The notes under the pieces: model-generated
The model's input: only the letters and a program-made list of their open reading frames with translations
The model's database searches: none
Told to the model about the DNA's origin: nothing
Position numbers and translations under genes: made by a program
Shown here: positions 1-38,911 of the stretch, in pieces
Layout of the letters: each line of letters begins with the position of its first letter
Position numbering within the stretch: position 1 is the first letter of the stretch
Source: Lytechinus pictus
Lineage: Eukaryota
Reading direction: 5' to 3'
Assembly (NCBI RefSeq): GCF_037042905.1
Contig: NC_087251.1
Location: forward strand, 39,000,001 to 39,060,000
DNA: 60,000 nt

Positions 1-2139
1 CGATTCCATCCAGTTGTATTCATTGCCAGTAATACCATAGTACTTAAGTTTTGCAAGTATAAAATTGTGAGGAATAACATCAAAAGCTTTGCGTAAGTCC
101 AAGAAAATACCACCAGTAACATGTTTTCGGTCCATTTTATCATACAAAAAGTCTGTAATCTCAGTTAGACAAGTGGCAGTAGAATAAGACGGTCTGAAGC
201 CAGACTGACAATTTGCAAGTAGATCATTTACATTTAAGTACTTATACAATTGATCATGTATGGCTCTCTCTAGTATTTTGGACAGGACTGGAAGCACAGA
301 AATTGGTCTATAATTGTCAATATCAAATGATCCTCCCTTGTGTACAGGAGTAATTCTTGCTGTTTTAAAATCTTCTGGAATAACACTAGTTTGTAAAGTT
401 GCATTAAATAAATGGGTTAAAGGGCCAGCTATACTCTCTGCTGCCAGCTTAAGAAACTTAGGGTGAATGCCATCTACTCCGACCGCTTTCGAACAATCAA
501 TATGTAATAGTTCTTTCAAAACATACTCCTTTTTTATTGCATAAAATTTAAATTCACAATCTGGAATAAACAGAGTTTGTAAATTGTTTAATAAATCTTT
601 CGAGAAATTACCCGAAGCGGCTTGCAACCTTGAGCCGACTTCATTAAAGGCTTTGTTTAGAACGTGAGCTATTTCATTGTTAGGTATTTGATCATTATCA
701 ATTGTTAATTTAACATCATGACTCGTGGTTTTATTTTTCTTAGGTATAAGCTTCGATAAAATGTTCCAGTTCTTTTTTATGTCATTTTCGCAGTCCTTAA
801 ATTTGTCCTGATAATACTTCTTTTTCAAATTTTTAATCAAGTTATTAGCTCTGTTACGGGAAAACTGAAATTTATTCCACCAATAAATTAATCTTGTTTT
901 TCTAAATTGCTTTCGATAATAATCCCTTTCGCGGGCTAACACCAAAAAATCATCATTTATCCAAGGTACCCCTCTTTGTTTTTGCCGCACTGATATCACG
1001 GGGGCATGCCTGTCACAAATGTCCAGGAGTGTGTTTTTAAAGTAGTGCCACAATTTTTCAACGTCAGTCCCACAGGAATAAAACTCATGCCAATCAACTT
1101 TCCTTACATCATCTTTAAATTTCTCACTGTCAAAGTACTTGAATGAACGACATTTAGTTATTTTCGGAGAAAGGGATTGATGTTTCCCTTTAATTGCAGT
1201 AAAAATCACAGAGTGATCACTAAGTCCAGCTGACTGCACTCCTGACTTAATAATATTGTCAACAAGTGCATCAGAAATACATACCAAATCGATTACTGAC
1301 TGGCTATGTGGTGAAATTCTAGTGGGTTCAGATATAACCTGTGTCATTTGCATTGTAGTAAGGAGACTGGAAACTTTTCTAGAAAGATTATTTATGGTTT
1401 GCATATTACAGTTAAAATCACCAAGAAGGATGACGTTGTTTGTAACTGTATACAATTTCTCAAGATTACTTTCAAGACTGTCAAAAAAATCTAAATGATT
1501 ATCCGGTTTTCTATACAATATACCAATAAATAATGAGCTACTATTGCTACGTTGCAACTCCAACCAAATTATTTCTAAGGCAACAGATTCAAGATCCAAT
1601 CTCCTTATATACGATAAATTTTCTGATATAAAACATCCCACTCCACCTCCATGAGTACATCTATCCTTCCTCTCAAACTTATAACCTTTAACAGAAATCA
1701 AGCTATCAGAATGTTCTTTTGTTAACCATGTTTCTGACACTCCTAGTAGATCATAAGGGTTATTATTCAGCCAACATTGTAAATCAGCAACTTTATTAAC
1801 AATGCTTCTGACATTAAGATGAGCTAATTTTATACCTTTAATATCTTTTAGAGCAAAATCATTAGTTTCGGTTGACCTATCATCATGTGCGTCGACAGAA
1901 ATATTATTACAGTTATACACGACTTCAGTAGATAGATCAGGATCATTCCAAAAAGGTAATACACTTTGGAGAATACATTTCGGGCACTGCCAATTTTCAA
2001 ACAGTTCATCTGAATCATAGGTCTCTCTTGAGACCCCGCCACAAACTATATGCACCCACTGTGAACATACAGTGCATAACAAAGCCTTTTGATTTATTTT
2101 AACAGATTTATTACAAATTGAACATAGGTATTTAATCAT
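1..2139 (-). mobile_element. CR1/L2-clade non-LTR retrotransposon ORF (PHD finger + AP endonuclease + start of reverse transcriptase), truncated by the window edge
   Basis: Uninterrupted 713-codon frame from ATG at 2139 to base 1. PHD finger: CSICNK...CTVCSQWVHIVC...WQCPKC. APE motifs: HLNVRS, GVSETWL, GGGVG, ILLGDFN, IDL, SDH. RT N-terminal motifs: KAVGVDGI, NYRPISVLPVLSKILER, QSGFR, FLDLRKAFD. Absent from the ORF track, probably because it has no stop in the window. Confidence 0.95.
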
Positions 2140-2963
2140 TAAATCTTATGTTGAAATTAGGTTGAGATTTTACTTCCTCCACTCTAAGCAATTTATATAC
2201 ATTAATCATTTTAATCATCAAATATATATACATGAAAAATCCGAATATGTGCAAAATTGCAACAGCAACCATAACAATAAAATGTAAATTGTCACACTTC
2301 AAAACAAGTGAAAAGTATTACGTGTAAGTAATGAATGTAATTTTATACAAATATTCAATAAAATAAGAACCAAGTTCTAGTGATTAACGTTATTAAAAAC
2401 AAATCGTATATTTAATAGTGCAATTTAAAGCAAATAGTAAACAGGAATTCGCCTGTGTGCTCAAGCAGACCAAGTATTACAGTTCAGTGAATTTGATTGA
2501 TTGGGGGTTGGGGGATTTTTTTTTTCAAGTAAAAAATAAAGGAACAAAAATTGAAGAGATGGGGGGGGGGGGGTGAAGAGTAGAGTAATATAGGTCTGGG
2601 CCCTGGAACTGATCTTTAATACCCTTACTAAACAGAAAAAAAAGACTTCACCATTAAGTTATCTCTCTCACCGCCCCACCCCCCTCACAGAATATCCTGG
2701 CGCCTTCCCTGTATGGGCAACACGGGGTTAAACGTGCAATACCCATATGCTTGTTAATATCAAAACAGATTTAAAATATTTTCGGGACACACCCCCCCCC
2801 CAACACTATTTCTATTTAGTAAATAATGACCTCGTACGATCGACTACGATTATCACTATCTGACTTAAAAAAGAGCATTTTCAATCATTGGTGATTGATT
2901 AGTTTCCTCAGACTCATATAACGGCGGGGTGTTTATAACGAATTATTATCTTTTCAATTTCAG

Positions 2964-5900
2964 GTTGAAGAGCATGACCCTGATCCAGAGATGACATTGC
3001 TCACTTACCTAAGAACAAAGTGTATCCTCAACCAACAAAAAAAATATTAGCAACATAAAAGTGTAAAGAAGCCAGTTTCGTATTTCTCCTAACTGGAGAA
3101 AGTCTAACATAAAATTTTTAACACTTAACAATGCCATTAATATTCATAGTATATATGTATACTTACAAAGTATATGGGACACCTTGAGGGAAGTTCATAT
3201 TCCTAGTATTATTCTTACCAATCCACGCACCGGTTCTGCAGAATATGAAAACACGACGCCGGCACTGCCTCATGGACCAGAGGGGGCATCTCTTCTCGAG
3301 ATATTAAAAATTGATAATGAAATTCCTCTTATACAAGCTTAAAAAAATATTTGCGTGTTTTTTCACGTTCAGGGAAAATAATTTAATACAGAAACGCAAA
3401 AGTCTTGAAATTAGAATAGGTGCGATGGATAGAATGAACAAAAAATAAAATTAATGAAAAGTAAACGTGGAATATATTTTATCGAATCCTTTTGTCAAAT
3501 AAGATAATTACGGCTTGATCAAAGTCAAACGTGTTCATAAGCTTGTACAAGTAGATCGAATTTCATTTTAAATTTTAATAAATATAAAAAGTTGATTTGA
3601 CGTCATTTTTTTTCCCTACATCACAAAATGATTTTTAAATTGAAAATGACGAAATATTTCAGATTTCCTTACTACAAAACAAACATGAATTCAGTGGGTC
3701 TAACAGGCACGAAGTCCGGCTGTTCTGAAGGAGGATGCGGGGCATGTACGGTGATGGTCTCCAATTATGATTCAAACTTGAACGTGATCTTGTATCCTTT
3801 TCATGTCAATTTGTGCTGACAATAATGTGCTTCACGGTGTCACATGATGATATTTGTGGTTGTAATGATAGAAATCACGATTTTATGTTCTTATGTTTTT
3901 GTTATATGTTATAGTTTTGTTTTTATTACTGTTGCTTTTGTTGTGACATTTGACATTGATTGATGATGCTTGTCGTTTTCTTTGTTTTCTTCAGCAAGTA
4001 ATCAAATATATAGGCCTATATCAAATAATAGTGGTAATCAAAATGGATATTAGAATATTAGTTATGCAAATGTTAATAGTGAGGATGAAGATATTATATC
4101 GGGAGTGATCTCTAACATAATAGTAATAAAGCAATAACTTACTTGAATACTTTTTAAATAAATTTAGTAAGCCTAGGCCTACTAAAGGCTCTATAGTCAC
4201 TAAGCTGGCTCCTATTGTAATTATCTTTAACATTGTCTTGAGAGTATATTCATTTTAATATGAAAAGTGTGTGACTAAAAGTGTGTGTGGGGGATGTGTG
4301 CGTTATGCATTTTGGAACCCTCAGACCTATACACGTATGCACTGCTCTGTATTTTGTGTAGTAAGATTAAAATCAGAGAAATAAAAAAATATATCAACCC
4401 ATGCATAGTAAAGTCGTACAGAACAGTTTTGGATTCTTGACACACAAATTCTAACATCACGAAACCTCTTCTATCTCTGCCTGTGTAGCCATCGTGCAGT
4501 GAATGCTTGTCTTGCCCCTGTTTGTTCAGTCCATGGCGCAGCCGTCACAACCGTAGAAGGTATAGGGAGCACAAAGACAAAGTTACACCCCGTACAGGTA
4601 AGAAAAATTGCCATATTCATTTTATTTTATAACCCATCCCACCGCTCACGCTATCACTTCTGCTGGAAAGTGTTTACAATGTGTTCACAGTGCGTTTACT
4701 ACATGTTTAAAGTGTGTTCAATTTTTTTTTTCACAGTGCGTTCACAGAGTGTTTACAATGCGTTCACAGTGTCATTTCAAAATGCTCACATTAAGCGTGG
4801 TGATAACTTCACATTGTTGACTGTAACAGCGGTAGTGTTTACAGTGTGTTCAGATAGTGGAATGTGTAAATGAGCTCCCCACGATTAAAATGCTCACATT
4901 TAACAGTGTGGAAATGATTTTACATTCTTGACGTCTCTACAGTGGGTGTGTTCAGATAGTGGAATGTGTAAATGAGCTCCCCACTATTAAAATGCTCACA
5001 TTTAACAGTGTGGAAATGATTTTACATTCTTGACGTCTCTACAGTGGGTGTGTTCACAGTGTGTTCAGATAGTGGAATGTGTAAATGAGCTCCCCACTAT
5101 TAAAATGCTCACATTTAACAGTGTGGAAATGATTTTACATTCTTGACGTCTCTACAGTGGGTGTGTTCACAGTGTGTTCAGATAGTGGAATATGTAAATG
5201 AGCAACCACTTTTAAAATGCTCACATTTAACAGTGCATGAGTGTGGAGATGATTTTACATTGACATCTCTACAGTGGGTGTGATCATAGTGTGTTCAGAT
5301 AGTGGAATATGTAAATGAGCTCCCACTTTTAAAATGCTCACATTTAACAGTGTGGAGATGATTTTACATTGTTGACATCTCTACAGTGGGTGTGTTCACA
5401 TAGTGGAATATGTAAATGAGCTCCCCACTTTTAAAATGCTCACATTTAACAGTGTGGAGATGATTTTACATTGTTGACATCTCTACAGTGGGTGTGTTCA
5501 CACAGTTGAGTATGTGAAGATGTGCTTTAAAAACTGTTAAATTGCTCAAAGTTAACGGTGTGGAGATAAATGGATATTGTTGACACCTCTTTAGTTTAAG
5601 TATTTACAGTGTATTTTTGCCGTCTTCAGGAACGTATACTGTCGAAACGTCGAGATTTGGTGCTTCTTTTCAAGACCAAACATACAGTATGCCCACAGAA
5701 GAATACACAGTGTCCATCTACCGTAAAGTTTTCATACTTATTCATTCTTTGGACATTTTCAGAAGTTATTTGGTTTTATTTTAAATTTTTACGACAAGGA
5801 ACGGATTGCTCTGGCCCATGGTACTCAATGTGGTTTCTGCACTCCAGGGATGGTGATGTCGATGTACACGCTCCTAAGAAATAATCCTCATCCTTCTATG

Positions 5901-11900: not shown

Positions 11901-14900
11901 CTTCATCATTTTCATCATCATCACCATGATCGTAATCGCCATCATCACCAATCACAACTGTCGCCACCATCACCGTCACCACCACTCCATCCCACCATCC
12001 TCATCATCACCATCATCATCATCATCATCATCGGAACCCTTCCACTACCCTTTTCATCACTTTTTAACAACTAGATTTATTATTTCAGATGATTGGCGGG
12101 AACATCGTGACTGGTAGCCCTATATCAGACCTCAATCCAATTCTCATGGCATGTAAATGCACCTTGGAATTGGTATCACAAACAAGAGGTAAAAAATCAC
12201 ATAAAGAACAAATATGTTTGAATTAAATTGAAAGCACGAGATTTGTCGTATTTTGTCAATTTTCTTTGTGTTGTGTTTTTTTAATCATTGTGAATCATCA
12301 AAGATTTGATTTTTATTTTTTGTGACTTAGAACTTAATTAATAAGTAATAACTAATATTTCTATTCTAAGAATGATGATAGTTTCGTTTATGTTGTTGTT
12401 GTTCAGGTAACATTGTCCTTTTAGGATTTTTTTTTTCACCAGCTTGGGGGAAACGATTTATAATAAAATTTCATGTTATATATAGAAAATTTCTTATTAT
12501 TTAGAAAAAAAGTCTTATACATTCATCACCATTTCAGGTACTCGTTTTGTGTTTATGGATGAACATTTCTTTACTGGCTACCGAAAGAATGTTATAGAAT
12601 TAGACGAGGTGTTGAAGTCGATCACAATTCCATTCACTAAAGAGGTATGCCCACCAAGACTTCATGGCCCTGGAAAGCGGGGGTGCTGGATTGCCTTGGG
12701 GTGCTGCGTGTAGTATTCTCCATTGGCAGCACCCCAAAGTATTCTGGAAGATGTGTAAACATTGGAAAATTTAATCAAAATCACCTTCATTTCGTAGTGA
12801 AACCCCCCCCTTTTTTTACTTTTCAAATTTATCGCTACCAATTAGACCATTATTTTGTAGTGAACATCAGCACCCCACTTAAAAAATCCTTCCCAGGGCC
12901 CTGCAAGACGTTTTGTAATACAGTGCGTCTCAGATAAAAGGAAACCGAGATTCAGTGTAATTTTTTCACATCATCATCATAAATTTGCTAAATGAAAGTT
13001 ACATGAATGGAAAAATAGTGCGTCTCAGATAAAAGGAAACCGAGATTCAGTGTAATTTTTTCACATCATCATCATAAATTTGCTCAATGAAAGTTACATG
13101 AATGGAAAAATATGTTTCTCCTCTTTCATTTGAATTCCATCTCAACGTTCATAATGCACGCATGACTGAGTTAGAATAATGGAAAGTGGTGCTACCAAAT
13201 TTTTCATTTGCACGAGTAAATTACGATTTTGAGTGAGGTTTTATGGCATTTGCAGCTTTCTATTCGGAAAACAAATGTCAGAACTTAAATATCCATCTTC
13301 TCCTCTACCACATGAGATCTTATGCATGAAATATGAATGAGGCATGGTCGAGAAAAAGTTGCATGAAAACATGCTTAATTTCTACCAATTCGACGAATCG
13401 TTGAAAACGAGCATTTCGTTTTTCCTACAAAGCGGCAGACAATAACCATGCTTATGGTGAATGTTATTCAGACTAGGGAGGGATACCCGTTTATTGCTGC
13501 CGACTGGAGTCTATGGCTATGGGAATTCAATGTTACAATATTAATAATGTAATTTTGATCTCAAACTTCTCTCACTCGTTTCATTTGTCGCTATATTTCA
13601 CAGGGGAGGCGGAACGTGTTTGGTGGGGGGGGGGGGGGGCAGGGCGAAGCAGAAAAGGGGTACATCACTTTTTCTACGTGCAAAGGAGAAAGCCATTTTT
13701 TTATCTGAAGGTTGTTTTTCTGAAACTTGGTCACCCCACCCCATCCAACATTTTGCTGCCCTGCCCCATCTAACCATTTATCATTTTAAGCAATAGTTAC
13801 AAGTTTTACAGAAATATTTTTTATAAGCCAATTAACCACAAAATCACACTCATTGCGCAGTCACCGGTAGCCCATTGTTTGCCACTTTGATGGAAATGCT
13901 TGTTTTTTAATGTCTTTTCACTATAGCTAGAATTTATCGACCATGTGTCAGTCATATTTTGCGCACAAGGTTTCAAGATGAAAAAACGGACATTTAAATT
14001 ACGAACTTTGCTTTCCGAAAAGATACCAGTAAAAGCCAGAAAATTCACTTAAAATCATAATTTGCTCGTGCAAATGGAAATTTACTACCACCTTTTTCCA
14101 TTGTTCTAAATCAGTCATGCCTGCATTATAAACGTAGAGATGGACTTTAAGTGAAAGAGGGGAAGCATATCTTGCCATTGATGTACATCTCATGAAGCAG
14201 GTTTGTGTTTATGATGTCAAAAAGTTACACTTAATTACGGTTTCATTTTTTCTGGGACGCACTGTACATCACCATGAAATAAAATAAAGAATTAGGCCTA
14301 TGTTTTTTTCGTCAAAATTTTCTTTCTTTTATTTATAGAAATATCAGATGACTCGAATGTGTATTTGTACTTGAGAGTAACCAAGCTGAATAGATGAATG
14401 CTCCATACTTCTTTATTGCAAATTGAATAATGGGAAATCGCAGAAAACAAGGGAAACATTAATGATTTTGTTTTATAACCTTTTACAATGTATGGGGAAT
14501 GTCAACATAATGCCCCATATTGTATCATTATTTACTTTAAAACAAAACATATTAGCCCTAGGTTTAAAGCACAGTATGATACTGATTGACTAGCTGCTTA
14601 GAATACAATACGTTCCCTGTCACCGTATACATTATCTGAGTTTTGTAACGGAATCGGCATGTTTTTCCATTCACGCAAAAACCCTCTTCCCCAAAAAATA
14701 TCCGAAATGTTTTGTCGACATCACTAAAATTGATATTTTATGTTGACCTATTTGCACGCTTTCTCTACCAAGAATGAATACGTCTATGGCTTCAAACAAT
14801 CTCCTCGTCGTGAAGACGACATCGCTATCGTTAACGCTGGATTGAGAGTGGCTTTCGATCACGGCACTGACGTCATCAGTGATATTGCATTGTCTTACGG

Positions 14901-17900
14901 AGGAATGGCGGAAAGTTCGGTCCTTGCCACAAATACTATGCAGAAATTAGTGGGAAAGTTAGTTGAATTTCAAAAAAGCCAAACTTTGTTAAAATTTAAA
15001 TGTTATTTTAATATTCTATGTTTAATTTATGATTATAATTCAATCAATCGTTAAATAAAATCATACGTAGAAAAATAGGTTGCAGTTATTAAGGGTTATT
15101 GGATTTATAAATATAAAGGCAGGATAATACTTACTCGGAGAAACATTTTCTTCTTGTCTCTTATTCTGCCTTCAAAACCATTCCATTGGCTAAGTTTTAT
15201 CACATGCAAACTGGGTAACACACATGAAGTTTGGAAATTAAAAGATGGAAGCCATTATCCAAAAGGGTCAGTGCTATTTTCTTACTGTCGTTATTTTGCC
15301 TTTTTACCTTTGCCTTAGAATCATTCATATTTTTCTGAGATAATATTCATATTGGTCAAAAAACCCTATTTGACAAAAATGAATATATCAAGATATTTTC
15401 ACCCTTGAATATACATTATTTCTAGGAAGTGGGACGAAACAATGTTGGAGATAGCATTCACATCCCTGGCAGAAGACTTTCTTCTTCCCGCTGGAGCTCC
15501 TGGTGGGATGGAAACTTATCGAAAATCGTTAGTCGTAGGATTCTTCTTCAAGTTTTATATTTTGGTCCTTCAACAGCTGCAATCTAAACAAGTGAGTTTA
15601 AACGGTTCTGTAGGTTATTATTGCACGATCAAACAAGAATAAACCTTATATTGATTAACATACGAATATGATTTTCATATTGAAGTAAACATCAAGGTAA
15701 AAAAGAAACAAGACATATTTTGATGAATTTCTTAATGAATAAATTTTTAGGCAAATAAAATTTCCATTTGCATTATAAACCTTGCTCAGGGGCCGGTTTC
15801 ATAAAAGACATACAACTGTTGTAACTTTATGTCAACTACCATGGCAACGGGGATCAGTAGCCAATCACAATCAAGGATATGATGACAGTTTTCATAGTTA
15901 AAAAGTTAAATTTATATAAATATTTATGTACGGACCACAAAAATATGGCAGTAACAGTGCAGGAAATGTTATACTTTGTAATAATATATCTTCTTATTAT
16001 TAAAAAAAAATCTAACTCGTTATTCAAAGTGCAGACTTGTGTATTGTGTATTTCATATTTTCTGGTCAAAATATAGATGAACCTTCCTCCTGAATTGACG
16101 TCATCCATCGACACGAGTGCCATAACTGTATTTAAAGATGGGCCTGTTGAAGGTGTTCAATTTTTCCAGGTTAGTCACTCTATTAACGCAAGTACAACCC
16201 ATTTCTGGCATATACTTATTATTGACATTTCTACTGTCGGTTCAAGTAATTTGACGAAATTACATCATCCATCGTCACAAGTGCCATAGCTCGGTAGAAA
16301 GATCGGTCAGTTAACGAGGTGAAATTCTTCCAGGTGGGTCACTATTAATGTAAATACCACGCATTTCTTTTACACGATGATTGAAAATAATTGCTGTAGC
16401 AATTTGACGCGATGGAGTCAAGAATCTCTTGGAAAGATTTCATTTTTAGAAGTTGCGCCTGTGAAAGGCATCTTCCAGGTAAGTCACTCCATTAATGCAT
16501 GTACCATTCATTTCTGTTATACGATAAATTACATTACTACTGTGGGTTCAAGCTTGTTGATGCAACATATTGTAGTCTCTTGAAGTCAAACGCATTCGAT
16601 TCTTTGAAGCTGAGCCCGTGAAAGGGTCCAGTTCTTCCAGGTTAGTCACTCCATTAATGCACGTACCATTCATTTCTGTTATACGATAATTTACATTACT
16701 ACTGTGGGTTCAAGCTTGTTGATGCAACAAATCGTAGTCTCTTGAAGTCAAACGAATTCGATTCTTTGAAGCTGAGCCCGTGAAAGGGGTTCAATTCTTC
16801 CAGGTTAGTCACTCCATTAATGCACGTACCATTAATTTATGTTAAACGATAATTTACATTACTCCTGTGGGTTCAAGCTTGTTGATGCAACAAATCGTAG
16901 TCTCTTGAAGTCAAACGCATTCGATTCTTTGAAGCTGAGCCCGTGAAAGGGTCCAGTTCTTCCAGGTAAGTCACTCCATTAATGCACGTACCATTCATTT
17001 TTGTTATACGATAATTTACATTACTACTGTGGGTTCAAGCTTGTTGATGCAACAAATCGTAGTCTCTTGAAGTCAAACGCATTCGATTCTTTGAAGCTGA
17101 GCCCGTGAAAGGGTCCAGTTCTTCCAGGTAAGTCACTCCATTAATGCACGTACCATTCATTTTTGTTATACGATAATTTACATTACTACTGTGGGTTCAA
17201 GCTTGTTGATGCAACAAATCGTAGTCTCTTGAAGTCAAACGCATTCGATTCTTTGAAGCTGGGCCCGTCAAAGGGGTCCAATTCTTCCAGGTAAGTCACT
17301 CCATTAATGCACGTACCATTCATTTTTGTTTTACGATAATTTACATTACTACTGTGGGTTCAAGCTTGTTGATGCAACAAATCGTAGTCTCTTGAAGTCA
17401 AACGCATTCGATTCTTTGAAGCTGGGCCCGTGAAAGGGGTCCAATTATTCCAAGTAGTCACTCCATTAATACACGCACCATCTATTTCTGATACTCTTAT
17501 ACAATGATTAATATATTAATGTATGTGCAAGCTTTCAATTTTGATAGAAGATGGGCATGTTAAAGGGGTCCAATTCTTCCAGGTAAGTCACTTCATGAAT
17601 GCACGTACCATATCTCTGTCACACTATAATTGACATTATCACTATAATTGACATTATCACTGTAGGTTTGCGTTATTTGATGCAATAAATTCAAGAGCTT
17701 CTTAAAAATGCATTCAGTCCTAAGAAGCCGTGCCTGTTAAAGGGGTCCAATTCTTCCAGGTAAGTCACTCCATTAATGCACGTACCATCCATTTCTGTTA
17801 TACGATGATTGGCATTACTACTGTGCGTTAAAATAAGTTGATGCATTATTTCCGAGAGTCTTTTGAAGACACATTTAATTCGCAGAATGGTAGATGATTT

Positions 17901-20900
17901 TGGGTACATTTTACATACCATAAGAATCCATTAACATAATCGGTCTAAATAATCTACTGGTAAACATGTGTTCGACAGCAAATAAGGAAAAATCAACCAA
18001 ATTCATGGTATACTCCAATCAATGCTGTGATTTATTTGCAGTGTTATTTGATTAAATTTGATGTTAAAAAAGAGGGGGGGAATGTAAATCTACGATATTA
18101 TTGTTAAAATCAGTTAATATATGTATATATATATATATATATAACTGACCACAGGTACGTCACATTCTATACCACTTTAGGAAGTATCCTCTGGCCAGCC
18201 AGACCACGATCCTGTGGGTCGTCCTATCAGTCACAAGGCTGCCTACCAACACGCCACGGGGGAGGCAGTATACATCGATGATATGCCTAGAATTTCGGGT
18301 AAAATATACTCTCTAAAACCATCTTCTAAACGGCGAAATCATAACTTAAAGAGTGAGAGTGTATTTAGAATAAGGAGTAAAAGTGCACTTTCGAGGAACA
18401 TTTTCTGAATAACAAAATTAACATTCACTCCAATCGAATGATCATTGATTTCACTTCTTGGGAAGTGAAATAGAGTAACTGATTCATTTAGTTCTCTCTT
18501 TATCCAAACATTAGTAAACTAAAATGTTTGTTCAATGCCACGAGGGGAACATTGATGATTTTATACATGTGTATCTATCTTCATCTTCTTCAAATACCAG
18601 CGTAATCGGTGTTTTAAAGTGTATGAGACGAGTCTTTGATATTAAAAATTTGTAATCCTCTTTGGCAGGAAGTCATAGAAAGGTGAACTTAATTTTGATA
18701 CAATTTCCTTTAAGTTGTTGTACGTATAAATGTAAAATATCTAAAAAATAATTCAATATCATATATGCGATTCAATCGGAAATGGTTTATTAAGATATAA
18801 GACAATAATCCACCTATGATGGCGGTGTGCAGCAGTATGAAAAGGAGTTGAATTTAAAAAAATCTTAATTTGAGAAGGCACAGAGTTATAACGAAAAGTG
18901 AAGATACATGTAGATGTAGTATGATTTTACTGGATGATAAAATACATCAGGCTGTGAATTTTCATTTGAAAATGCTAACAACGCGGACAAGGAAGATAAT
19001 TAGGTACCAACCTTAACATAGTTAATGAGTTCTTAAGCAAAGAAAATAGAATCACAACACTGAACAGAAGTGCATGGTAGACATTGAGCATGCTTTATCA
19101 TTTTATTATTATCGGTATTCGACATGACTCTCATATTAAATTTCTTTTCAAAGGTGAACTTCACATGGCATTTGTCTATAGCGGGAGAGCTCATGCAAAG
19201 ATCATGTAAGCACATCCTTTATATTTCAAGGTATACCTATTGCACACCTGCAATGATAATATGGTATTTTTGCATAGGACTACTCTGACACTAAAAGAAA
19301 CCATATAAAACAAACTAGTCATAATAAGATACATTCTGGGCATTAACTGATAAGTCATTTGAATTAATTAAGTGTAAAATCCTCAGAATGAAATTAGAGC
19401 ACCATTCAGTTTGCAGAAACTTTATTCCAAATATCGAACCTCTTGGTTTATATTAAAAAAAACCCATCAAATTGTATGGCTTGATTCTCTGTTCACGGGG
19501 CTAAAATGTTCATATATATCTTGAAATACACTATCAGAGCAGTATATTGTTCATTTTTGGTGCAGTTCACGATATCCCAGTGGAGTTATTTATTATTGAA
19601 ATGAGAATTGAAAGCTATTCATGAATCTTCACGAGACTCCTCTGTTACTGGGTGAAAACTGCAAAGAGGTCTTTATAAACAAAACTTTTAATATTCTCTT
19701 TATCTTTGAGATCTATGCTTGCCATTAATCGCCTTAAAGGTATAGAAAAGAATAAATAGAAATAATAATCCTAATCATTCGAACAATTTCGGGATATTTT
19801 GGGAAATTCTATGAACCTACATTTTTCAAGATAAATAATTTTGAAAAGTGTAAGCATTTATAACAAAACCTTTTTATTTCTTATCTATACAGATCCATCG
19901 ATCCATCTAATGCATTAGCCATGGATAGTGTTCATGACTTCATATCTGCTGAAGATGTTCCTGGTAGTAACTTTTTAGGCCCCATTATTCCTGATGAGGA
20001 ATTGTTCGCTACTAAAGAAGTAATTGTACCAACTTAGAAGAACTAGAAGATTTTGGACATTACTTGTTGTGTATTCTATAGCATCGTTGGAGTTCGTTTC
20101 TGTGTTACTGTCTTAAAATCTGTGTAAACTGAATTTGAAATGATTAATTGTAACTACGGCATGCAATGAATTCTCTTATGATAAAGTTTACATTTTATCT
20201 CATCAAAGACACATTTTCATATAATTTTACTGTACTTTCATCATGCCTCAAATTAATAGTATTCTTTTACTTTCACAGTCAAATCTGAAACATGATAAAT
20301 TATTGTGAACTAGTTTAGGACACTTATTTGCGAAACAATATGAGAGAGATGTCACATTCTTAAACTTTTTTATTCCTTCAGGTGATGCATATTGGCCAGA
20401 TCATCGGGGCTGTTCTCGCTGATACCAAGGAGCAAGCCCAACGAGCAGCCAAGGAAGTCAACGTCGAGTTCAATGATCTCGAGGCGGTGATCACGATTGA
20501 GGTACGTATATGACACTGTTATGGGATGAAAACATGCAATCAAATTTCACACGCAAATCCGCAACATCAGAGTTATTCACTTTAAATGATAGTACTTATA
20601 GCTGTGATATCTTTTTACAAACTGCGTCTAACATAAAACATTTCAAATCATTTTAACTCTGAAGAGAGAATGAGGAGGTTATGGGAATGGTAGACCTTGG
20701 AAAGTAAAACGACTTTCATTTATATTTTTCATAATATTAATATCTAAAGCTCAGTTGTGTTACCACATCATTCATTGTCATTTAATGCCAAGAGCTTATT
20801 TACTTACTTCTCTATTTTTTGCAGGACGCAATTGCAAAGGAGTCCTTCTTCGACTTCTCAAGAGTTATTGAAAGTGGTAATCTTTTAGAGGCTTTCGAGA

Positions 20901-23900
20901 AGTCTGACTACGTCATTGAAGGAGAATTGAAAGTTGGAGCTCAGGAACACTTCTACATGGAAACCCAGTGCGCATGCGTGGTACCAAAGGGGGAGGATGG
21001 GGAGTTTGAAGTATTCTGTGGTACTCAAAATCCTGCGGCTGTGCCGGTACGTTCCAACCAATTATTGTTTATCAGTTTAGATTCATGTGAAATAAAAATG
21101 ATGTCACGGTGTTACAGGGTTAAAATTGTCCCACAAGGGATACACAGTCACACATCTTTACTATCATACACCTTTTAGGTGTCTATTTATATCATGTGAG
21201 CTAAAAATATCCGACAGCTATTTATGCAGTATTACATTTCAAAAATCACATACTCTAAGATAGAAAAAAAAACGAATCTCGACTGATAAAATATGAACGC
21301 ACCAGCATTTAGATTTAACTGACAGAGGTATGTAATTGTGAAGAAAAGTTTTTTAAAAGTTGGTAATTTGATATTTCAACTAATCTATCGATTCTTATGC
21401 GAATCGACTAAGAGTGTATCTATCTAGAAGTATTTACAAATTTGATTCGGTTGCTCATTTGATGAATCAATCTTTTGAATTCAGACCTTCGTTTCTTCTG
21501 TCCTTGGAGTTCCATGTAATCGGATAACCGGTCGTTTCAAGCGGTTAGGTGGTGCCTTTGGTGGAAAACAGTATCGGTCGGCGATTCTCGCTGCCCAATG
21601 TGCTGTTGCTGCTAACAAGTAGGTATTTAATATAATTAACGTTTTAAACTACACCCTTAATCAACGGGTTCATCAATTTTTGACTAGCTCTTCGCCAATG
21701 TTGGGTCATATACTGTCCAACACACATTTTTGAAATTTATTATCTTGCTCCGGTTGGTCAACTTAGTCAACTAATACTTTGTGTAAATTTTCTATACCTA
21801 ACGTAAGGTGATCTCTCAAAATAAATTTTAAGCCTGTGTTGATCCTATATGCTACTGGGGTATTTATTAATCAATTGCATAACTTAAAGAAATTGCCCAA
21901 CTGTTCGGTCACAAGTTTTTTTTATCATTTATCATATTTTGTCGCCCTTATTTCCGAATTATTTCACGTTTGTCTATCCAACCCTATCCAGTTTTCGAAC
22001 TTGTTTTTCCTCTGCAATTTCTGTTTGGGCTCTTTCATCTGTTTGGGACTGAGATCGGATGCTAGCGATTACAGTTATCTCGCGTTTGACGCAATAAACT
22101 ACAAAAATTAAATGGAAATAATTTTGTTTTTGAAAGAAAATGGGATGCAAACATAATACTTTGGTTATCATTGATATATGCCCACATGACTGCGCTACAA
22201 ATTCGGTATTGAAGACTGTGATTTCATATAGTAGCACTGATGAAGAGTTTATCAGGGATATTAAGGAACAGTGTCGATTTGAATAAGATAACTCATAGTT
22301 AAAAGTGATATATCCATTAATGAGGAGAGAAAGCCAGATCAATTCCAGTCTCTGATCTCAAATACATGCGTTCTTTTAAAGGATGGCTCTTGTAAGGGTG
22401 CTTATAACGCTTTATGATAGGTCGTGATGAGGATATAGCATCAACAGGGACAAGGCATCGTTCTTAGGTCGCTATAAGGTCGGACTTATCTTCAAGTCTC
22501 TGATATCATTATGATTGTGTTCTCTTGGTCTCTAGGGTTGGTCGTCCAGTGCGTTTTATGTTAGATCGGAATGAAGACATGAAATCGACAGGGACAAGAC
22601 ATCCGTTCTTGGGTCGTTACACGGTCGGTTGTACCAAGGATGGAAAACTCGTCGGTGTTGACATCAAGATGTTCTCCAACGCTGGCTTCTCTTATGATGT
22701 TTCTACTGCGGTAAGTATATACAGGGTCTCGCAACATAAAACAATTGATCATGGGGCTGGTTTCTATGATTGATTGCATCGACTATTGTGTATGATCAAT
22801 CATAAAAAAAACCAAAAACCATTCGCTTAGCATTATGTAACGGGACCAAGGATACCGATCATTTTTTCCTGACAAGAAGGGGTAGATTTTATATAGTCAG
22901 AAATTTGGAAGTAACATCAGACAGTATTACAAAGCACAAACATTCGCAATTATGTTGTGCTATATCGGCCCCATTCTGCTTTCTTACGTTTAAACACGTT
23001 AATCATATTACGAATACAGTAATTTAGATATTAAAGTTCTGATTAAATTTAACCTTTTGCTCACAAACCCAAGTACTATCCGAAGAATTACCTCGAAATT
23101 TTCGGCTGCTAACTGCTGCCTAGATAAGTTCTTTTTAGAAAATGAGGAAAAGTCCAAAAAATTGCCCACAAAATTAGCTACTCAAAATTATGTTTAGGCC
23201 TAAATCCTGAGACATGCTTTTCGTTCTTCTTGATAAATTAATTAGTATCTTTTTAATATCAACATATTTTTTAAAATTGATATAAACATCATGTTACTTA
23301 TCTTCTTCATTAGATGCCTGCATATTCTGGAGGAGAATCTTTTAGAATTACAGGAGTTTTTATATATATTTCATAATAATAAAACATTAAATATGTAAGA
23401 AGTTTACATTAATGTCATAAAAGAAGAATTTTGAAGAATTATATGTTTTGGATAGAAACACGAAGAAACCGTCAATATCAATTTAGCTTTACCTAGACTA
23501 CAGGAAAATATTTTAACTTATTTCTTCGCATAAAACTTCCATACTACAGGTGATGGACAAAGCGATTCAGTATTTTGACAACGTATATCGGTTACCGGTT
23601 TTCCGGGTTGAGGGCCGAATTTGTCGTACCAACCTCCCGTCCAACGTAGCATTCCGTGCATTTGGAACACCACAGGCTATGATCATTACTGAATCACTCA
23701 TGGATGATGTCGCAGTCAAGTGCAGGATTCCTCAGCATAAAGTACGACATAAAAGTATTTACAAATACTTCAAGTTCTAATATTTTTTATGAAATTCTAT
23801 TTTGGGTGTATAAAATTGGCAAAATATAGGGATTGCTTTTATGGCTTCAAGAACTATTGATTGCAAAAGTAAATAATCATCACCAATGATGACCATATCA

Positions 23901-32900: not shown

Positions 32901-34304
32901 ACTGAAATCCTTGTGCGAGTTGACCTGCAACACATTGTCAGTGAAGAACACTGAAATCTGAAATCATTTTTTTTTTTACTACTAGTGGAACTAGAGGAAA
33001 TTGTTAGTACATCCCTTCCTGAAATAGGCATGTGAGCTGGTAAAATAAAATCTAGCATGAATACATGTACAATCAGTTTTGTCCTGACTACTCTTGTCAT
33101 TACCTAAATCACCGTGGCACGGTACAATTTCACTGGAAGGCCAATAATTGGCGAAAAGACAGATGAAAGACTGTGCATTTGATAAAAATCTGTTAACTAA
33201 ATGTGGATTTGTGTGCGCTATGAACGCCTAGCTTAGCCGGGTAATACAGGAGCGCCTTGAGCACCTAACAAGGTGGATATGTGCGCAATATAAATACCCT
33301 ATATTATTATTATTATTATTTGTAGTTGTATATTATGTACTGTAACTGGCGCTACTTACTAAAGGAAATAAGCGAGCTCTGCAAAAGCTTCTGTAACAGT
33401 ATGGTCATTTCTAAGTGCAGATTAGGACATTAAAATACTAAAGAAATCTTGAAATCATCTACTTCTAGACTGCTAAAATTTGCTATTCTTTCGCCTTTTA
33501 CATTGGGATCAACCGGACCTTATTTTTTTCTTCTTTTCCATAAAGGCTTGTGGGGAGCCACCCTTCTTTTTAGCCTCATCAGTCTTTTTTGCTATCAAGG
33601 ACGCCATGATGTCAGCCAGAGCAGATGAAGGTTTGACTGGTATCTTCCGGTTAGACAGTCCCTCGGTCGCTGAAAGGATTCGACTCGGCTGTGTGGACAA
33701 GTTCACCAAAATGGTAGGTACTCCATACAAGGGAAAGGCTTTTAAGGTCGTCGCACCTTTGTCTTTCTTCCAGCTGTTCGTAATTTACAACGACTTAACG
33801 AACGACTAGTGATCCTTATTAAGGGGCGAAATCAGCACCATTGAATATTTGATGCATAATGTAGCGGGAAAATGCCAACGTACTGTACGTGTGGCCAGCC
33901 ATTTTCTCCTTTAATCCATTTCTTGATAATATCAAGAAATTGTGAAGAATTGATTCTGTTGTCAACAAAGACAATACTTGATATAAGCAAAGGGATTAAG
34001 AAAACGGCTAGCCATAGCCTACGTAAATCAGCGATAATGTTTATGGGTGACAGCCCCATATCTCTCCAGAGACAGATTATGATAAGGGTTGAAAAACGTT
34101 GTATTAGATGAGATTTATTATCTTTGGATTCTCACAATCCCAATCCTCCCATTCTTTTATTCCTGCTACATATCCTTTCATCTCCCCCACTGAATCTTTC
34201 CGTTTCTTTTTATCTATGCTCCCTATCTCTATCTATGTTCTCCTTTTTGTTAGTTCCCATCACCTGAGCCGGGTACCTTCAGACCATTCTTCGTCCGACC
34301 ATGA
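2964..34304 (+). CDS. XDH: Xanthine dehydrogenase/aldehyde oxidase family molybdo-flavoenzyme (XDH-like), multi-exon; first exon lies upstream of the window
   Basis: 31 GT-AG exons join in frame to 1311 codons + TGA: 2964-3021, 3695-3791, 4489-4597, 5799-5987, 6771-6821, 8559-8639, 9537-9681, 10099-10266, 10736-10812, 12089-12188, 12538-12644, 14773-14957, 15426-15591, 16077-16169, 18181-18298, 19154-19205, 19893-20019, 20382-20501, 20825-21046, 21485-21618, 22536-22710, 23550-23741, 24845-24990, 26296-26377, 26934-27158, 27650-27724, 29768-29820, 30309-30489, 32661-32849, 33546-33713, 34254-34304. 2Fe-2S motifs [33 protein letters not shown] motifs GGNTEIG, FFTGYRK, RREDDIA; Moco motifs [20 protein letters not shown]. 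Confidence 0.95.
3022..3694 (+). other. U12-type (minor spliceosome) GT-AG intron in the XDH-like gene
   Basis: 5' splice site GTATCCTC; branch-like TTTCCTTAC at ~3664-3672, about 22 nt before the CAG acceptor; no polypyrimidine tract. Confidence 0.85.
3792..4488 (+). other. Second consecutive U12-type GT-AG intron in the XDH-like gene
   Basis: 5' splice site GTATCCTTTT is a perfect U12 consensus. The branch candidate AATTCTAAC at ~4447-4455 is weaker. Confidence 0.8.
4780..5590. repeat. Intronic minisatellite, ~102-117 bp unit, about 7 copies
   Basis: Recurrent unit gtgttcagatagtggaatgtgtaaatgagctccccactattaaaatgctcacatttaacagtgtggaaatgattttacattcttgacgtctctacagtggg, degenerate at both ends. 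Confidence 0.9.
6947..7257. mobile_element. hAT-like non-autonomous element (MITE) with 8-bp TSD
   Basis: Imperfect TIRs gaagggcagaaatc / gatttccgcccatg, flanked by AATAGTAA at 6939-6946 and 7258-7265. Confidence 0.7.
7732..8042. mobile_element. MITE with long terminal inverted repeats (PIF/Harbinger-like termini)
   Basis: Left ggcccgtattctgaagtcgggtttaagttaaactcaggtttaaagttgtggt matches the reverse complement of right accgcaactttaaacctgagtttaagttaaacccgacttcagaatacgggcc; aag on both flanks. Confidence 0.85.
11201..11769. mobile_element. hAT-like MITE with 8-bp TSD, carrying a tRNA-like fragment
   Basis: TIRs cagaggcgtcgatc / gatcgacgcccctg; TSD CCATCATC at 11193-11200 and 11770-11777; subterminal poly-G/poly-C. 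Confidence 0.8.
11770..12060. repeat. Degenerate (CAT/CAC)n trinucleotide repeat
   Basis: Long run of catcat/caccat units just upstream of exon 12089. Confidence 0.9.
12663..12903. mobile_element. hAT-like MITE
   Basis: TIRs catggccctggaaag / cttcccagggccctg; 7/8 TSD match caagactt / caagacgt. Confidence 0.7.
12921..14264. mobile_element. Tc1/mariner-type non-autonomous element with TA TSD and long degenerate inverted arms
   Basis: ta|cagtgcgtctcagataaaaggaaaccg ... cggtttcattttttctgggacgcactg|ta. Internal arms ~13100-13300 and ~13985-14175 are degenerate reverse complements. 95-bp tandem duplication at the left end (12922-13016 / 13017-13111). Confidence 0.8.
16092..17830 (+). repeat. Tandem array (~162-163 bp unit) derived from the 3' part of XDH exon 16077-16169 plus its splice donor and intron start
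   Basis: The junction ...TTCCAG|GT(A/T)AGTCACTC recurs with exon-side ends at 16169 (real exon), 16333, 16478, 16640, 16803, 16965, 17127, 17290, 17453 (degenerate), 17582 and 17759. Confidence 0.92.
22345..22490 (+). pseudogene. Degenerate partial duplicate of XDH exon 22536-22710 directly upstream of the real exon
   Basis: cgctttatgataggtcgtgatgaggatatagcatcaacagggacaaggcatcgttcttaggtcgctataaggtcgga aligns with the exon's cgttttatgttagatcggaatgaagacatgaaatcgacagggacaagacatccgttcttgggtcgttacacggtcggt, with a 1-nt deletion. Confidence 0.8.
24300..24586. mobile_element. MITE with TACACTGTTA termini; second, truncated copy at 42267-42496
   Basis: TIRs tacactgttaaaaaa / ttttctaacagtgta; ~230 bp nearly identical to 42267-42496. 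Confidence 0.8.
25809..25890 (+). tRNA. tRNA-Ser-GCT: tRNA-Ser (anticodon GCT), intronic in the XDH-like gene
   Basis: 82-nt GACGAGGTGGCCGAGTGGTTAAGGCGATGGACTGCTAATCCATTGTGCTCTGCACGCGTGGGTTCGAATCCCATCCTCGTCG: acceptor stem GACGAGG/CCTCGTC, A and B boxes, GCT anticodon, long variable arm. Confidence 0.97.
25895..25900 (+). terminator. RNA polymerase III terminator (T6) of the tRNA-Ser gene
   Basis: TTTTTT four nt after the tRNA 3' end. Confidence 0.8.
27860..29430 (-). mobile_element. Decayed L1/Tx1-like LINE fragment (RT region)
   Basis: Minus-strand pieces [31 protein letters not shown] and [10 protein letters not shown], broken by stops and frameshifts. Confidence 0.85.
30736..32100 (-). 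mobile_element. Decayed L1/Tx1-like LINE 3' fragment with A-rich tail
   Basis: Minus-strand pieces [20 protein letters not shown] and [18 protein letters not shown] (C-terminal zinc-binding region); T-rich tract at ~30736-30750 is the tail. Confidence 0.75.
33200..33320 (+). mobile_element. Probable SINE/LINE 3' tail fragment
   Basis: agcgccttgagcacc...ggtggatatgtgcgcaatataaat followed by an (ATT)n tail. Confidence 0.45.
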
Positions 34305-37300
34305 ATATACCAAGAACAACCATCCCTCAAGAGCACGGAAGGCATCATAAATATGTATTCGATTGACTGGACTGCAATTTTGAAGACCCTTTTTATGAGT
34401 TTTGTTTTCTACAGGATATCCGAACATCCAATGCAATATTTGTTCATGTATAGATTTCAGTGAAAATATTTTCCGTTGTTTTGTAGGTACTTTTCGACGA
34501 ACGTAGAGGGCGTCAAGTGCTGTGCCGCTGTGCCCCAGAGCTGTGCCCTATACGTTCGTTGATATTTTTGTTTTTATAAATTTGAATATTTAATTCAATC
34601 TGGTTATATGACGTAACAATTCCATTTCTTCGTTTAACTGAGTTAGAACTTAAGGATATAGAAAATGAGAATTCTGTTTACTTCCCACTCTGTATAGGGT
34701 ACTCAATATCAACATTGTCCAGTTTTTCTTTTCTCTTGTGTGCGGAGCGGACAAACAAAACACATACTTTTTGATATTTCATTGATATGGTGCATTGTTT
34801 ATATAAATGTTATTTATCAAAGCGAATGTGTTAACGTCGGATGTATATAGGCAATCAAACTTTGTTATTTATATTTTTCTATGAATCCATGGTGTGTATG
34901 GTAAAATCCTATACATTAAAAAACATGCTTAGGATATTTTTTTATGCTTATAATACAATGCTTTTAAATAAATATAGATACTTTAGCATGTCTCATTTGC
35001 AGAGTTTTTCTTTTGAGAAAATCATTCTATTCATTGCCAAATATACGAGGATAAACGAAATAGTATATAAATAACAATTTGACTTATTACACAATTATAT
35101 TGATGTAATTTGTTGAAATATGTTTCGTTACAATGGGGAGAATCGTAAAAGAATATTGAATGCACAAAAAATGTTTTCGCGTAAAAACAAACAGCTCTAC
35201 ATATGCCTATTTCTTATTTGCATTGATTATCATTGTGATATGTGAAATAAGTGAATCATTACGTTACGATGATGGTGTGGTCTTATTTGTAATAAACTTC
35301 CAAAATGCTTTATTAGAAATAGATTGCTGGGAATAAAGCCTTTGACAATCAATCATTATGGTGATTAAGTTTGCCGATCAAATTTGGAATGTATAAAGTA
35401 AATTCAGAATGATATGAATAGAATGAAAATTGTAATGTTGAAAGTATAAATGCAATTAGTCATTTTTAAAACCAAAACTGTCACTTGTGTGGATTGTTTG
35501 GTATCTTCTTAACTGACGCCTATATTTTCATGTAAATTGATTAAAAATTGTTAACACTGATTTCTTGCCTGGTAACCTAATATATGTCAACATAGTCTTT
35601 TTCTACTTAGCTAGCTTTTGTATTGGTATTAATTTTCCATATCACAACATTAATAAAAATACAAAGTAAATAGGTGTATATACATAATGAAATATGTAGG
35701 CCTGTCATGAACGGTTGAATAAACCCAACTCAGCTTTGTAATTATGCGAAAACAGTTCTTCCGTGTGTTCCAGGAAATATACAGTGTACATTGATTTATT
35801 GATTTTTTTTTTGCTGTAAATATTCACTACATGAATGTGATCATTTTTGTGATAATGTATTTCCCATTATTGAAAAAAATAAAAATCATGCTTACTTTTT
35901 AACGTAAAACATTTTTTAAAAATATTACAGAATTGTTGGTATTGCTATCGGATGGATTAAAACTAAATTTATCTTAATAACAATAGAAGAAGCCGGGTTT
36001 GAAGATTTATATGGGTGTTTTCCTCTTGACCCCCTGCCACCCCCTTTTGCTGACTATCGAGAAAAAATGAATCCGAATCCAGAGAAGTCTTATGGCGGTC
36101 CTGGGGGGGGGGGGGGGCATCCAATGAATAACAAAAAAAAACTTCCAATAGATCAGTATGCAATGGGACAGGTGCGTTGCTATATCCTTTGTTAGTCAAG
36201 AGAAAGTCATTCAACTTTTGTCTGTACAGATGATGGCATTTTATTCTGAGTAAAGAAACTATTAGTCGATGGAGTATTTTTGTTTAATTTCTTTTTTTTT
36301 TCTGCGTTCAAGGAAAGCAATGATTAGATGTTATAAAAGATAAACAGTAGCAAGAGCTTAAAGTAACTGAAAAAAACGTGATGTCGAGTACATGATTTAA
36401 GTCATGATTCAATTGAAAATATATGCAGTGTGGAAAGCAGGAAACCGCCATCGCGAGTGGTAAGGGTTGAATATAGATATGTGTTGCATTGGCATTGGTA
36501 TGTCCATAACTGTAATTGAATTTTTAAGAATGATTAATTTCAATGTATGAGGAATTTATGTATCATAATTATTATAACACAATTAGTACTATTATTGTCT
36601 TATATGAATGCTCGTTACGAGCAGGGCAAATGACAGCCTTGTTTAATGAAAACAGCGTCGGTGGTCATTCACTTTGCCTTTGTCTCATAATGATTGATCT
36701 AAACTTGACATAATTATGAGGCCACGCATACACGCACCACTTCCAATGATTTTTTTGGGGGTGCCTGAGGCACCCCCGCTTACCAGGGCCATGTTCTAAG
36801 CCCCGACTGTACTCCAAGCCACTCCTATAGTACCAATGAGGTCCAAACATTATATGTATGCTCCAAGCTGAGGTCTATCCGCCCTCTCACACGGTACCAA
36901 AATCGTAATTTGAATGACGATTCCAGTGAAAAATAATTCTAATGACAAATTTCCAGCAGGTGTGAAACCAAACTAGAATCCTGAACGCCAATCACGAATT
37001 CAAATTCTACTCCGGTTTCACTCAAATTACGGTACGAAATTTACGACCTGCAAAACAACTGTTGAGGGGCGGAGCTTACCTGACATTTCAAGCACTTCCG
37101 TATAGATAATACAATTGTCATGCACTCATCGTAATTTCTTTTTTTTTTTCAATGCAGTGCTTTGATTGGGTTTGATTGACAAATCACAAAGGACACAATA
37201 CCGCCTTCACTCAGGAATTCGAATTCAAAAAATCAGTTTTCGAGTGAACGTGTGAATGGTACACTGATTCTAAATACAAATTTCAATCATTACAAAGATG

Positions 37301-37399
37301 ATTCAAGATTCTCGTGTGAAAAGGCCCTAGGTTGTATTGGAATGTAGCCTTAGAACGATCAACGGAGATTTGACGCATTTACTCCGGAGAAACTCTGCA

Positions 37400-37619
37400 A
37401 CGCATCGATTCCTTTGAAAATGCAATTAAAATCACAATTGAGAGCTGAGAGGCTTTTGTCGAAATTTGGTGGACTGGGACAGCCGATCATCCGAAGATTT
37501 GCACCAGACGAACAATTGCAAATTTTGTCGTTTTCCAGAGTCAATGGATTCCGATTTCGACAAAAGCCTCTCAGCTCTCCTTTGTGATTTAACTTCCATT
37601 TTCGAAGGAATTGGTGCGT
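37400..37619. repeat. Inverted repeat / hairpin (probable decayed MITE), also present in copy 2 (~55997-56215)
   Basis: Perfect 26-bp core gagagctgagaggcttttgtcgaaat / atttcgacaaaagcctctcagctctc inside ~65-bp imperfect arms. Confidence 0.75.
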
Positions 37620-37869
37620 AGTAAATAAGAAAAGTATGGATATAAATTCAATTGAATATATTTGGAGAAAGCCGAATCAAGGAAAATACACATTAAAAAC
37701 AGATCGATCGAATATTTGTACTCTCTTAATACGAATGATCTAATCTGGTCCCTATAATCACACTCGTCTCGGTGTGAGATGATCTCACTCCTTATGAAGT
37801 GAGTTTTGCATCTTTTGAGACTGGAATAAAGGATGCACAAGCAATATTCACTCAAAAAGGAGTCATAAT

Positions 37870-38376
37870 CACTAGCGTACCTACGGGGGGGGGGCAGGGG
37901 GGGCACTCTGCCCCCCTGACGAGCCACAACCCATACAAAATACATATCACTGCCCCCCTAACGAGCATGAAAGACCTTTTATGCCCCCCCTGACGAGCTT
38001 GAAGACCTTTTATGCCCCCCTGACGAGCTTGAAGACCTTTATTGCCCCCCTGATGAGCTTGAAGACCTTTTTTTTTTTTTTCTTTTTTTTTTCTTTTTTT
38101 TGCTTGTCAATTTTTTTTCTGGTACAATAACCGTTATTTTTTATTGAAGACCTTTTTTTTTTTTTTTTGCTTGTCAATTTTTTTTCTGGTACAATAACCG
38201 TTATTTTTTATTGAAGACCTTTTTTTTTTTTTTTGCTTGTCAATTTTTTTTCTGGAACAATAACCTTTATTTTTGATTGAAGACTTTTTTTTTTTTTTTT
38301 TTTTTTTTGGCTTGTCAATTTTTTTGGCGGCCGATTTTGCCCCCCCCCCCCGTGGAAAATCCTAAGTACGCCACTG
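37870..38376. mobile_element. hAT-like MITE inserted only in duplication copy 1
   Basis: TIRs cactagcgtacct / aagtacgccactg; TSD GTCATAAT at 37862-37869 and 38377-38384; single empty GTCATAAT at 56468-56475 in copy 2; internal tandem gcccccctgacgagcttgaagacc units. Confidence 0.9.
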
Positions 38377-38771
38377 GTCATAATGCACTCTAAATGATGT
38401 GTACAGTTCACTTCAAAGGGATTGGTCCCTGGTATCACTCCGAGAGGAATGTGATAAGGGACCAAACAGATCCTTTCCATTTAGAGACAACAAGGAACAT
38501 GCCATTGGCGGACCAGGGGGAGGGGGCAAATCTGGCTCGTGCACCCCCCCCTCCCCCTGTGGGTCATTAAATGAAATATTTGTAGAGGAAAATGTTAGGG
38601 AAGCGCAATTGAAGACCTTTTTATTCTTTTTTTTTTTAGCTTGTCAATTTTTCTGAACAAAAATACCCCCCTTCTAAAAAATCCTGAATCCTCCCCTGAT
38701 TATCGCTTATATAACCTCTCATCCATTTCCAAAGTGGCTACTGCGCTTGGACCGCCCATCATTTTTTATGA

Positions 38772-38911
38772 GAGCGCATGCATTATTACGTCACTCCTAA
38801 AGCGTGCATACGTCATCATCTAAGTGTAAACCGCTTGCATTGTTACGTCACTCGACTAATGCGCGCATACGTCAGTAACTTTTGTATTATATAGTCCACG
38901 TTGCTACCAAC
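38772..38911 (+). promoter_or_regulatory. Putative proximal promoter of the TMEM145-like gene: clustered CRE-like TACGTCA sites, GCGCATGC-like motifs and an X-box-like element
   Basis: Four TACGTCA motifs in a duplicated ~57-bp unit, and GTTGCTACCAAC at 38900-38911, 110-250 bp upstream of the ATG; mostly retained in copy 2. Confidence 0.45.

Follow-up and report, generated by a model that had tools for sequence, protein, structure and literature searches.

Tandem copies of an exon end and its splice donor in a sea urchin xanthine dehydrogenase-like gene: a probable junction-spanning minisatellite

The window analysed here, a 60,000-nucleotide stretch of DNA from the laboratory sea urchin Lytechinus pictus, carries a xanthine dehydrogenase (XDH)-like gene. 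Its exon at 15427–15591 matches, with 100% identity, RefSeq XP_063958717 (P0001), which is xanthine dehydrogenase/oxidase-like and comes from the same species. P0001 as a whole matches in 31 exact pieces running from 2964 to 34304, with no match within the 60,000 nucleotides for residues 1–17 (exon 1). Positions 1–2145 hold, on the minus strand, a non-LTR retrotransposon ORF that is truncated at the edge of the window and encodes a PHD finger, an endonuclease and a reverse transcriptase. Because XDH exon 1 must lie beyond it, this element probably sits in XDH intron 1. The two L. pictus RefSeq versions of the protein, P0001 and P0011, differ at 31 of 1328 residues, with P0011 often agreeing with L. 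variegatus, and they could be either very divergent alleles or recent paralogs. The assembled contigs described below also contain a second sequence form, 6–9% different in two exons. Isoform X2 (P0009 and P0007), annotated at 1122 amino acids in both Lytechinus species, leaves the reading frame near residue 1115 and does not have the C-terminal 200 residues.

Several other repeats were seen in the window. A second intronic minisatellite of the XDH gene lies at 4775–5615, with about six copies of a 102–113 bp unit that contains an acceptor-like ..CTCTACAG, and it matched no exon or junction of the XDH gene. At 22408–22483, in the intron just upstream of the exon at 22552–22628, there is a 77-bp, 78% copy of the inside of that exon with a 1-bp deletion, and this fragment keeps Asp and Lys, as do the L. 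variegatus proteins, where P0001 has Asn and Thr. A 7.5-kb segmental duplication (34293–41915 and 52605–59988, 87–90% alike) starts at the XDH stop codon, so that the 3’ end region of XDH is copied at 52605. Matches to the N-terminus of P0002, an L. variegatus gene model, occur in both copies of this duplication (at 36370 and 54669), suggesting that the first exon of that model is a mis-annotation. Between the duplicated blocks are GPR180/TMEM145-like exons and a 374-codon ORF with no Pfam match (44506–46388 and 50008–51129).

The feature of interest begins at exon 16077–16169, which codes for residues 529–559 and is in phase 0 on both sides. The original prediction had assigned it to the linker between the FAD and Moco domains with a counterpart of mammalian Phe549, and the alignment agrees: F547 aligns with human XDH F550, equivalent to F549 in bovine and rat, a residue that the available part of PMC4832347 places in the linker and in an Arg/Trp/Arg/Phe cluster. 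In the alignment to human XDH, the mammalian cluster Arg335/Trp336/Arg427/Phe549 has predicted counterparts in R331, W332, R423–R424 and F547. There is no equivalent of Cys535, as urchin residues 500–600 contain no Cys, and the position of Cys992 is occupied by Arg; indeed, the best match was a rat C992R mutant chain with the same Arg. From these residues the urchin enzyme is predicted to lack the mammalian-type Cys535/Cys992 disulfide switch of XDH/XO interconversion. Because both cysteines are missing, any tie between the array and dehydrogenase/oxidase conversion would be weak, though the cluster residues align. The Diadema setosum model P0004 is without the linker exon, which could reflect either a gap in the gene model or true skipping.

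Downstream of this exon lie 10 extra copies of its end and donor, on the one haplotype we analysed (Table 1). The 11 junctions of the original prediction are all there, ending at 16169 (the real one), 16333, 16478, 16640, 16803, 16965, 17127, 17290, 17453, 17582 and 17759, with successive donor-to-donor spacings of 164, 145, 162, 163, 162, 162, 163, 163, 129 and 177 bp. The real junction, used as a query, matched all 10 copies with E values from 2e-7 to 1e-16, and none of the other junction queries from the gene’s 31 exons gave a multi-copy match. TRF reported a tandem array at 16471–17490 with a 162-bp unit, 6.3 copies and 95% identity. The core units are homogeneous in length (162–163 bp) and 93–97% alike to the first of them, and the edge copies are 57–82% alike over positions -78 to +86 relative to the junction, compared with 49 ± 3% for random pairs. 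Beyond the last donor, a partial twelfth copy without a donor extends to about 17880.

Table 1 Features of the array intron and its flanking exons (positions in the window)
Feature	Position	Strand	Basis
Upstream XDH coding exon, aa 474–528 of XP_063958717 (P0001)	15426–15591	+	Exact protein match; contig joins to 16077 in 4/4 runs
Real FAD-Moco linker exon, aa 529–559; F547 = human F550; donor CAG/GTTAGT	16077–16169	+	Alignment, exact protein match, contigs; acceptor weakest of 27 scored
True intron start and first copy, which includes 78 nt of exon at 73% identity, has a stop codon in place of Phe and ends in donor CAG/GTGGGT	16170–16333	+	Sequence comparison
Old shortened edge unit, 145 bp, ending in CAG/GTAAGT	16334–16478	+	Sequence comparison
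Homogenised core, six 162–163 bp units; donors 16640, 16803, 16965, 17127, 17290 and damaged 17453; contains the proposed 65/66-nt cassettes	16479–17490	+	TRF, unit comparison
Old edge unit with deletion, 129 bp donor to donor; donor CAG/GTAAGT	17491–17582	+	Sequence comparison
Old edge unit, 177 bp, with internal 18-bp duplication at 17622–17661; donor CAG/GTAAGT; 50-bp run identical to the 17290 core copy	17583–17759	+	TRF, run comparison
Best-scoring candidate pseudo-exon, 94 nt, early stop, frameshift; absent from the original prediction	17666–17759	+	Acceptor score 7.4; translation
Intron part of last donor and truncated, donor-less twelfth copy	17760–17880	+	Sequence comparison
Downstream coding exon of XDH, beginning at aa 560; highest-scoring acceptor of the array intron	18181–18298	+	Exact protein match; acceptor score

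The donor motif is largely retained across the array. Six of the 10 copies carry CAG/GTAAGT, two carry CAG/GTTAGT like the real donor, one carries CAG/GTGGGT and one, at 17453, is damaged; the GT is kept in all 10 copies and CAG/GT in nine. The motif AG/GTRAG occurs six times in the array intron versus once in 28,099 nt of the gene’s other introns. The exon part of the copies is less complete. It had been proposed that cassettes within the array derive from the linker exon, and this is correct downstream of position -39; upstream of it, recognisable exon sequence was found in the 16333 copy only, where 30 of 39 bases agree in register, and the other nine copies gave local scores within those of shuffled sequence (p = 0.28–0.86). 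Similarly, the aligned Phe codon is kept in the core as was claimed, but not at the edges, where there is a stop at 16333 and 17759, Ile at 17582 and Leu at 16478. We considered RNA structure in the core unit and rejected it, as the folding value (-27.7) was no better than that of 100 shuffles (-30.8 ± 3.1). The minus strand of most units contains TACGTG, which we take to be hypoxia-element-like, although a 6-mer alone is no proof.

We scored the splice sites with matrices built from the XDH gene itself, the donor matrix from its 27 other donors (2 of 30 donors and 4 of 31 acceptors, whose edges were not fixed, were left out). The six CAG/GTAAGT copies score 12.6, compared with 9.7 for the real donor, bearing out the statement that several copies fit the consensus better; the nearest pseudo-donor, at 16333, is not among the strongest. 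The acceptors present a different picture. By the matrix from this gene, the 27 true acceptors range from -3.3 to 12.6, and the cassette acceptors, at -5.0 and -7.7, lie below all of them and below 72–86% of 1240 intronic AGs. The acceptor at 17666 (7.4) is second only to the true one among the 98 AGs of the intron. The real acceptor of the linker exon is itself the weakest of the 27, although the 20-nt matrix undervalues a T-rich tract further upstream. The cassette lengths given previously (66 and 65 nt) are right: the three 66-nt core cassettes are in frame, stop-free and in phase 0, with Phe in register with F547, and three of the six core units frameshift through a 1-bp deletion. The stop predicted at 16287–16289 for read-through past the real donor is present as well, and every extension of the exon, like the 94-nt pseudo-exon, contains a stop.

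Splicing was examined in shallow contigs (depth 3–20) from four runs of one study, which we guessed to be RNA although none of the runs listed is on record as such, over the region 14300–16640. The runs hold 6–7% of the words of 13000–20000, which we estimate to be about what the exons alone would give. In all four runs, contigs join 15591 to 16077. Among the records listed (32 of 151 pieces), seven fall on the linker exon; one ends inside it, and all six that reach the donor end their match at 16170 and continue for 23–284 letters elsewhere. A match ending at the G of 16170 fits exon 18181, which begins GA; it fits neither a cassette, which would continue with T, nor read-through or the exon at 17666, both of which would continue with GT. 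The partner of the first donor is thus inferred to be 18181. The main mRNA form thus leaves through the authentic first donor. Two sequence forms, eight letters apart in the linker exon, both show the join of 15591 to 16077, and the form found in X1 and X3 also exits at the first donor. The listed contigs contain the normal join only and no cassette inclusion, and none of the four runs covers 16196–16640 (two edge copies and one core unit), an absence that carries no weight because contigs drop rare forms. None of the six RefSeq Lytechinus proteins in the cluster (four from L. pictus, two from L. variegatus) has an alternative linker, X2 differing at the C-terminus only; both contigs and RefSeq models would miss rare or NMD-sensitive forms. 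In the upstream intron, a short interspersed element at 15787–15878 was matched by many unrelated contigs, with a summed depth of 1500–3000.

It had been suggested that donor positions in a neutral array would mutate like the rest of the unit. We compared five segments, four old units and one core unit, leaving out the true intron start and the other five core units. The part that U1 reads behaves as suggested: the donor 9-mer has 3 departures from the majority in 41 letters, compared with 30 in 301 for its flanks (p = 0.78). The larger surroundings of the junction do not. The near half of the unit, 79 nt around the junction, shows 33 departures in 342 letters versus 79 in 359 for the far half, roughly a twofold difference in favour of the near half (p about 1e-5; 0 of 2000 in a best-window permutation). 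These figures overstate the effect, since indels add to the departures of the far half, the segments are not independent of one another and it was by their junctions that the copies were identified. In G+C the two halves differ little, with 44% in the near half and 37% in the far half. Furthermore, among the copies at 17290, 17582 and 17759, whose overall similarity is only 66–79%, there are perfectly identical stretches of 31, 35 and 50 bp, each of which crosses the junction; these three of the 15 copy pairs tested gave runs that were reached in 0 of 5000 shuffles each. Even allowing for the overstatement, the 50-bp identical run is hard to dismiss. A conversion event between the real junction and the 16803 copy was considered as well and is not claimed, since the shared run is 17 bp, p = 0.03 is uncorrected among 15 pairs and one site disagrees.

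No coding constraint was seen in the copies. Comparison of the real exon with the copy majority (three synonymous and two non-synonymous changes) first suggested coding selection on the copies, which we rejected because the copies decay freely among themselves: four separate copies show five synonymous versus 10 non-synonymous changes, with 20% synonymous expected if all changes are equally likely, and the copies also include the 1-bp deletion in three of six core units and stops in two edge copies.

The closest match to this array that we found is the amphioxus “mirage” minisatellite, described in globin genes BflGb6 and BflGb9, Adh3, troponin C and PGBD5 (available parts of PMC3087553 and PMC3902484), and in particular that of BflGb6. 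From what could be seen of these reports, the amphioxus and urchin arrays have in common tandem copies of an exon-intron boundary, a homogenised centre, excluded edges and normal splicing. The globin units measure 150–160 bp; the mirage copies are 81–100% alike and keep their splice signals in many but not all units, as in the urchin. The urchin array differs in its echinoderm host and its 10 extra copies, and copy-number instability has been shown in amphioxus, whereas the urchin is represented by one haplotype. Junction-centred identity runs in old copies are seen in the urchin array, and the accessible portions of the two amphioxus papers make no mention of them.

A second close system is the human F7 IVS7 37-bp VNTR, together with CBS IVS13, IFI6 (6–16), LMNB2 (100 bp) and PDGF (81 bp) (PMC1557585, in the portion seen, as for the further statements from it). 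In F7 and in the urchin alike, the repeat starts with a unit that runs across the exon end, further donors follow within the intron, and splicing takes the first donor even where those behind it are the better match to U1. In F7 minigenes stronger downstream pseudo-sites are unused, and removing or adding units changes nothing; human IFI6 and CBS make some use of their nearest pseudo-sites. The urchin array differs from F7 in its longer unit, its much larger share of exon (39–78 nt) and its old, diverged edge copies.

No related DNA turned up in metagenomes, whether scanned for a 24-base motif of the array or for the upstream exon, and our search, which most subscription journals lay outside, found no literature on the XDH locus in Lytechinus or on such arrays in sea urchins. 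Tandem exon duplication can give alternative or mutually exclusive exons. The urchin array is like such duplications in having exon-like, phase-0, in-frame pieces in the intron beside the parent exon, but it differs in that the duplication came without an acceptor, shows no coding constraint and has no inclusion seen.

We therefore read the locus as a junction-spanning minisatellite, of the mirage or F7 IVS7 type, that splicing ignores, with a probability of about 0.8, in line with the neutral minisatellite that the original prediction had kept as a fallback. Four of five features that define such arrays are found on this haplotype, namely a first unit over the true boundary, a repeated donor, use of the first donor, and a homogenised centre with diverged edges; the fifth is a copy number that differs from allele to allele. 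A microhomology of 8–9 nt at the seam of the first copy (16093–16100 versus 16248–16256) suggests that a local duplication took in about 78 nt of the exon and 86 nt of the intron. Such a duplication of the exon end and adjoining intron, probably at this short microhomology, would have placed a second donor behind the first; unequal exchange would then have multiplied the unit, with the middle homogenised recently and the edges left to decay. The copies may be old. Nine of the 10 carry a Lys codon at a site that is Glu in the linker exon 16077–16169 and in its L. variegatus ortholog but Lys in the paralog P0002, and on the simplest reading the copies keep the older Lys state and would predate the species split. 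In the proposed mechanism the spliceosome would define the exon from its own acceptor and take the first donor, and the later copies, because they are without a usable acceptor, would stay intronic. In their main form the mRNA and the protein are normal, and the copies would be tolerated rather than used.

Neutral turnover alone does not explain why the kept part sits on the junction, which counts against the mirage reading. For the identical runs, gene conversion is a likelier explanation than selection, judging from the one haplotype, because these runs extend far beyond the length of a splice signal and two of the donors are decayed; short conversion tracts would have kept the junction parts of some old copies identical. 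It is conceivable, but unlikely, that the junction itself and not the whole unit is what is kept, either because a process tied to splice sites, such as co-transcriptional breaks or RNA-guided repair, aims the conversion tracts, or because selection retains the silent donors as U1 landing pads in support of a weak exon. In its more specific form, the latter holds that U1 snRNP binds the repeated donors, which stay uncut, and so contributes to the definition of an exon with a weak acceptor, a natural counterpart of exon-specific U1 rescue, and that selection keeps the junction parts of the copies. The low matrix score of the real acceptor and the junction-centred conservation both agree with this, and exon skipping can be rescued with an engineered U1 that binds downstream of a donor, according to the available parts of PMC3349419 and PMC4822034. 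However, the 9-mer read by U1 shows no better conservation than the sequence on either side, the two decayed donors include the nearest one, the T-rich tract may make the acceptor better than its score, and unit deletion in F7 had no effect (PMC1557585), so that we regard this as very improbable.

The array might instead be leaky, with a few transcripts using a downstream donor or the 94-nt pseudo-exon at 17666–17759 and being destroyed by NMD, so that array copy number or sequence trims XDH output, as reported for the CBS VNTR. Six pseudo-donors stronger than the real one, a good acceptor at 17666, a stop in every product of this kind and the use of near pseudo-sites in human CBS and IFI6 (PMC1557585) all speak for it. 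We nevertheless hold it to be quite unlikely, as the first donor was the exit in all six listed contigs that reach it, the nearest pseudo-donor is not among the strongest and the stronger downstream sites of F7 do not compete (PMC1557585). Still more doubtful is the proposal that the 66-nt units serve as alternative linker exons, spliced instead of or after the real exon and altering the FAD-Moco linker and the dehydrogenase/oxidase balance. The three in-frame cassettes with Phe in register, and the alignment of R331/W332 and the Arg pair 423–424 with the mammalian cluster residues, are what such exons would call for. However, their acceptors fall below all true ones, half of the core frameshifts, the first half of the cassette (its first nine or so codons) is not detectably exon-derived, no such isoform is annotated among the six RefSeq proteins, and the listed contigs leave at the first donor. 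The enzyme to be switched also has no equivalent of Cys535 or Cys992, and chicken XDH never converts (PMC4832347, in the part available). We thus abandon this part of the original prediction as highly improbable.

If the locus is a junction-spanning minisatellite that splicing ignores, it matters little as one more mirage array, but it supports first-donor choice outside vertebrates and amphioxus. The gene provides a natural construct for competition between donors, with a weaker first site winning over six stronger ones. Should the junction-centred runs hold across many arrays, they would point to a bias of mutation or selection that is tied to splice sites.
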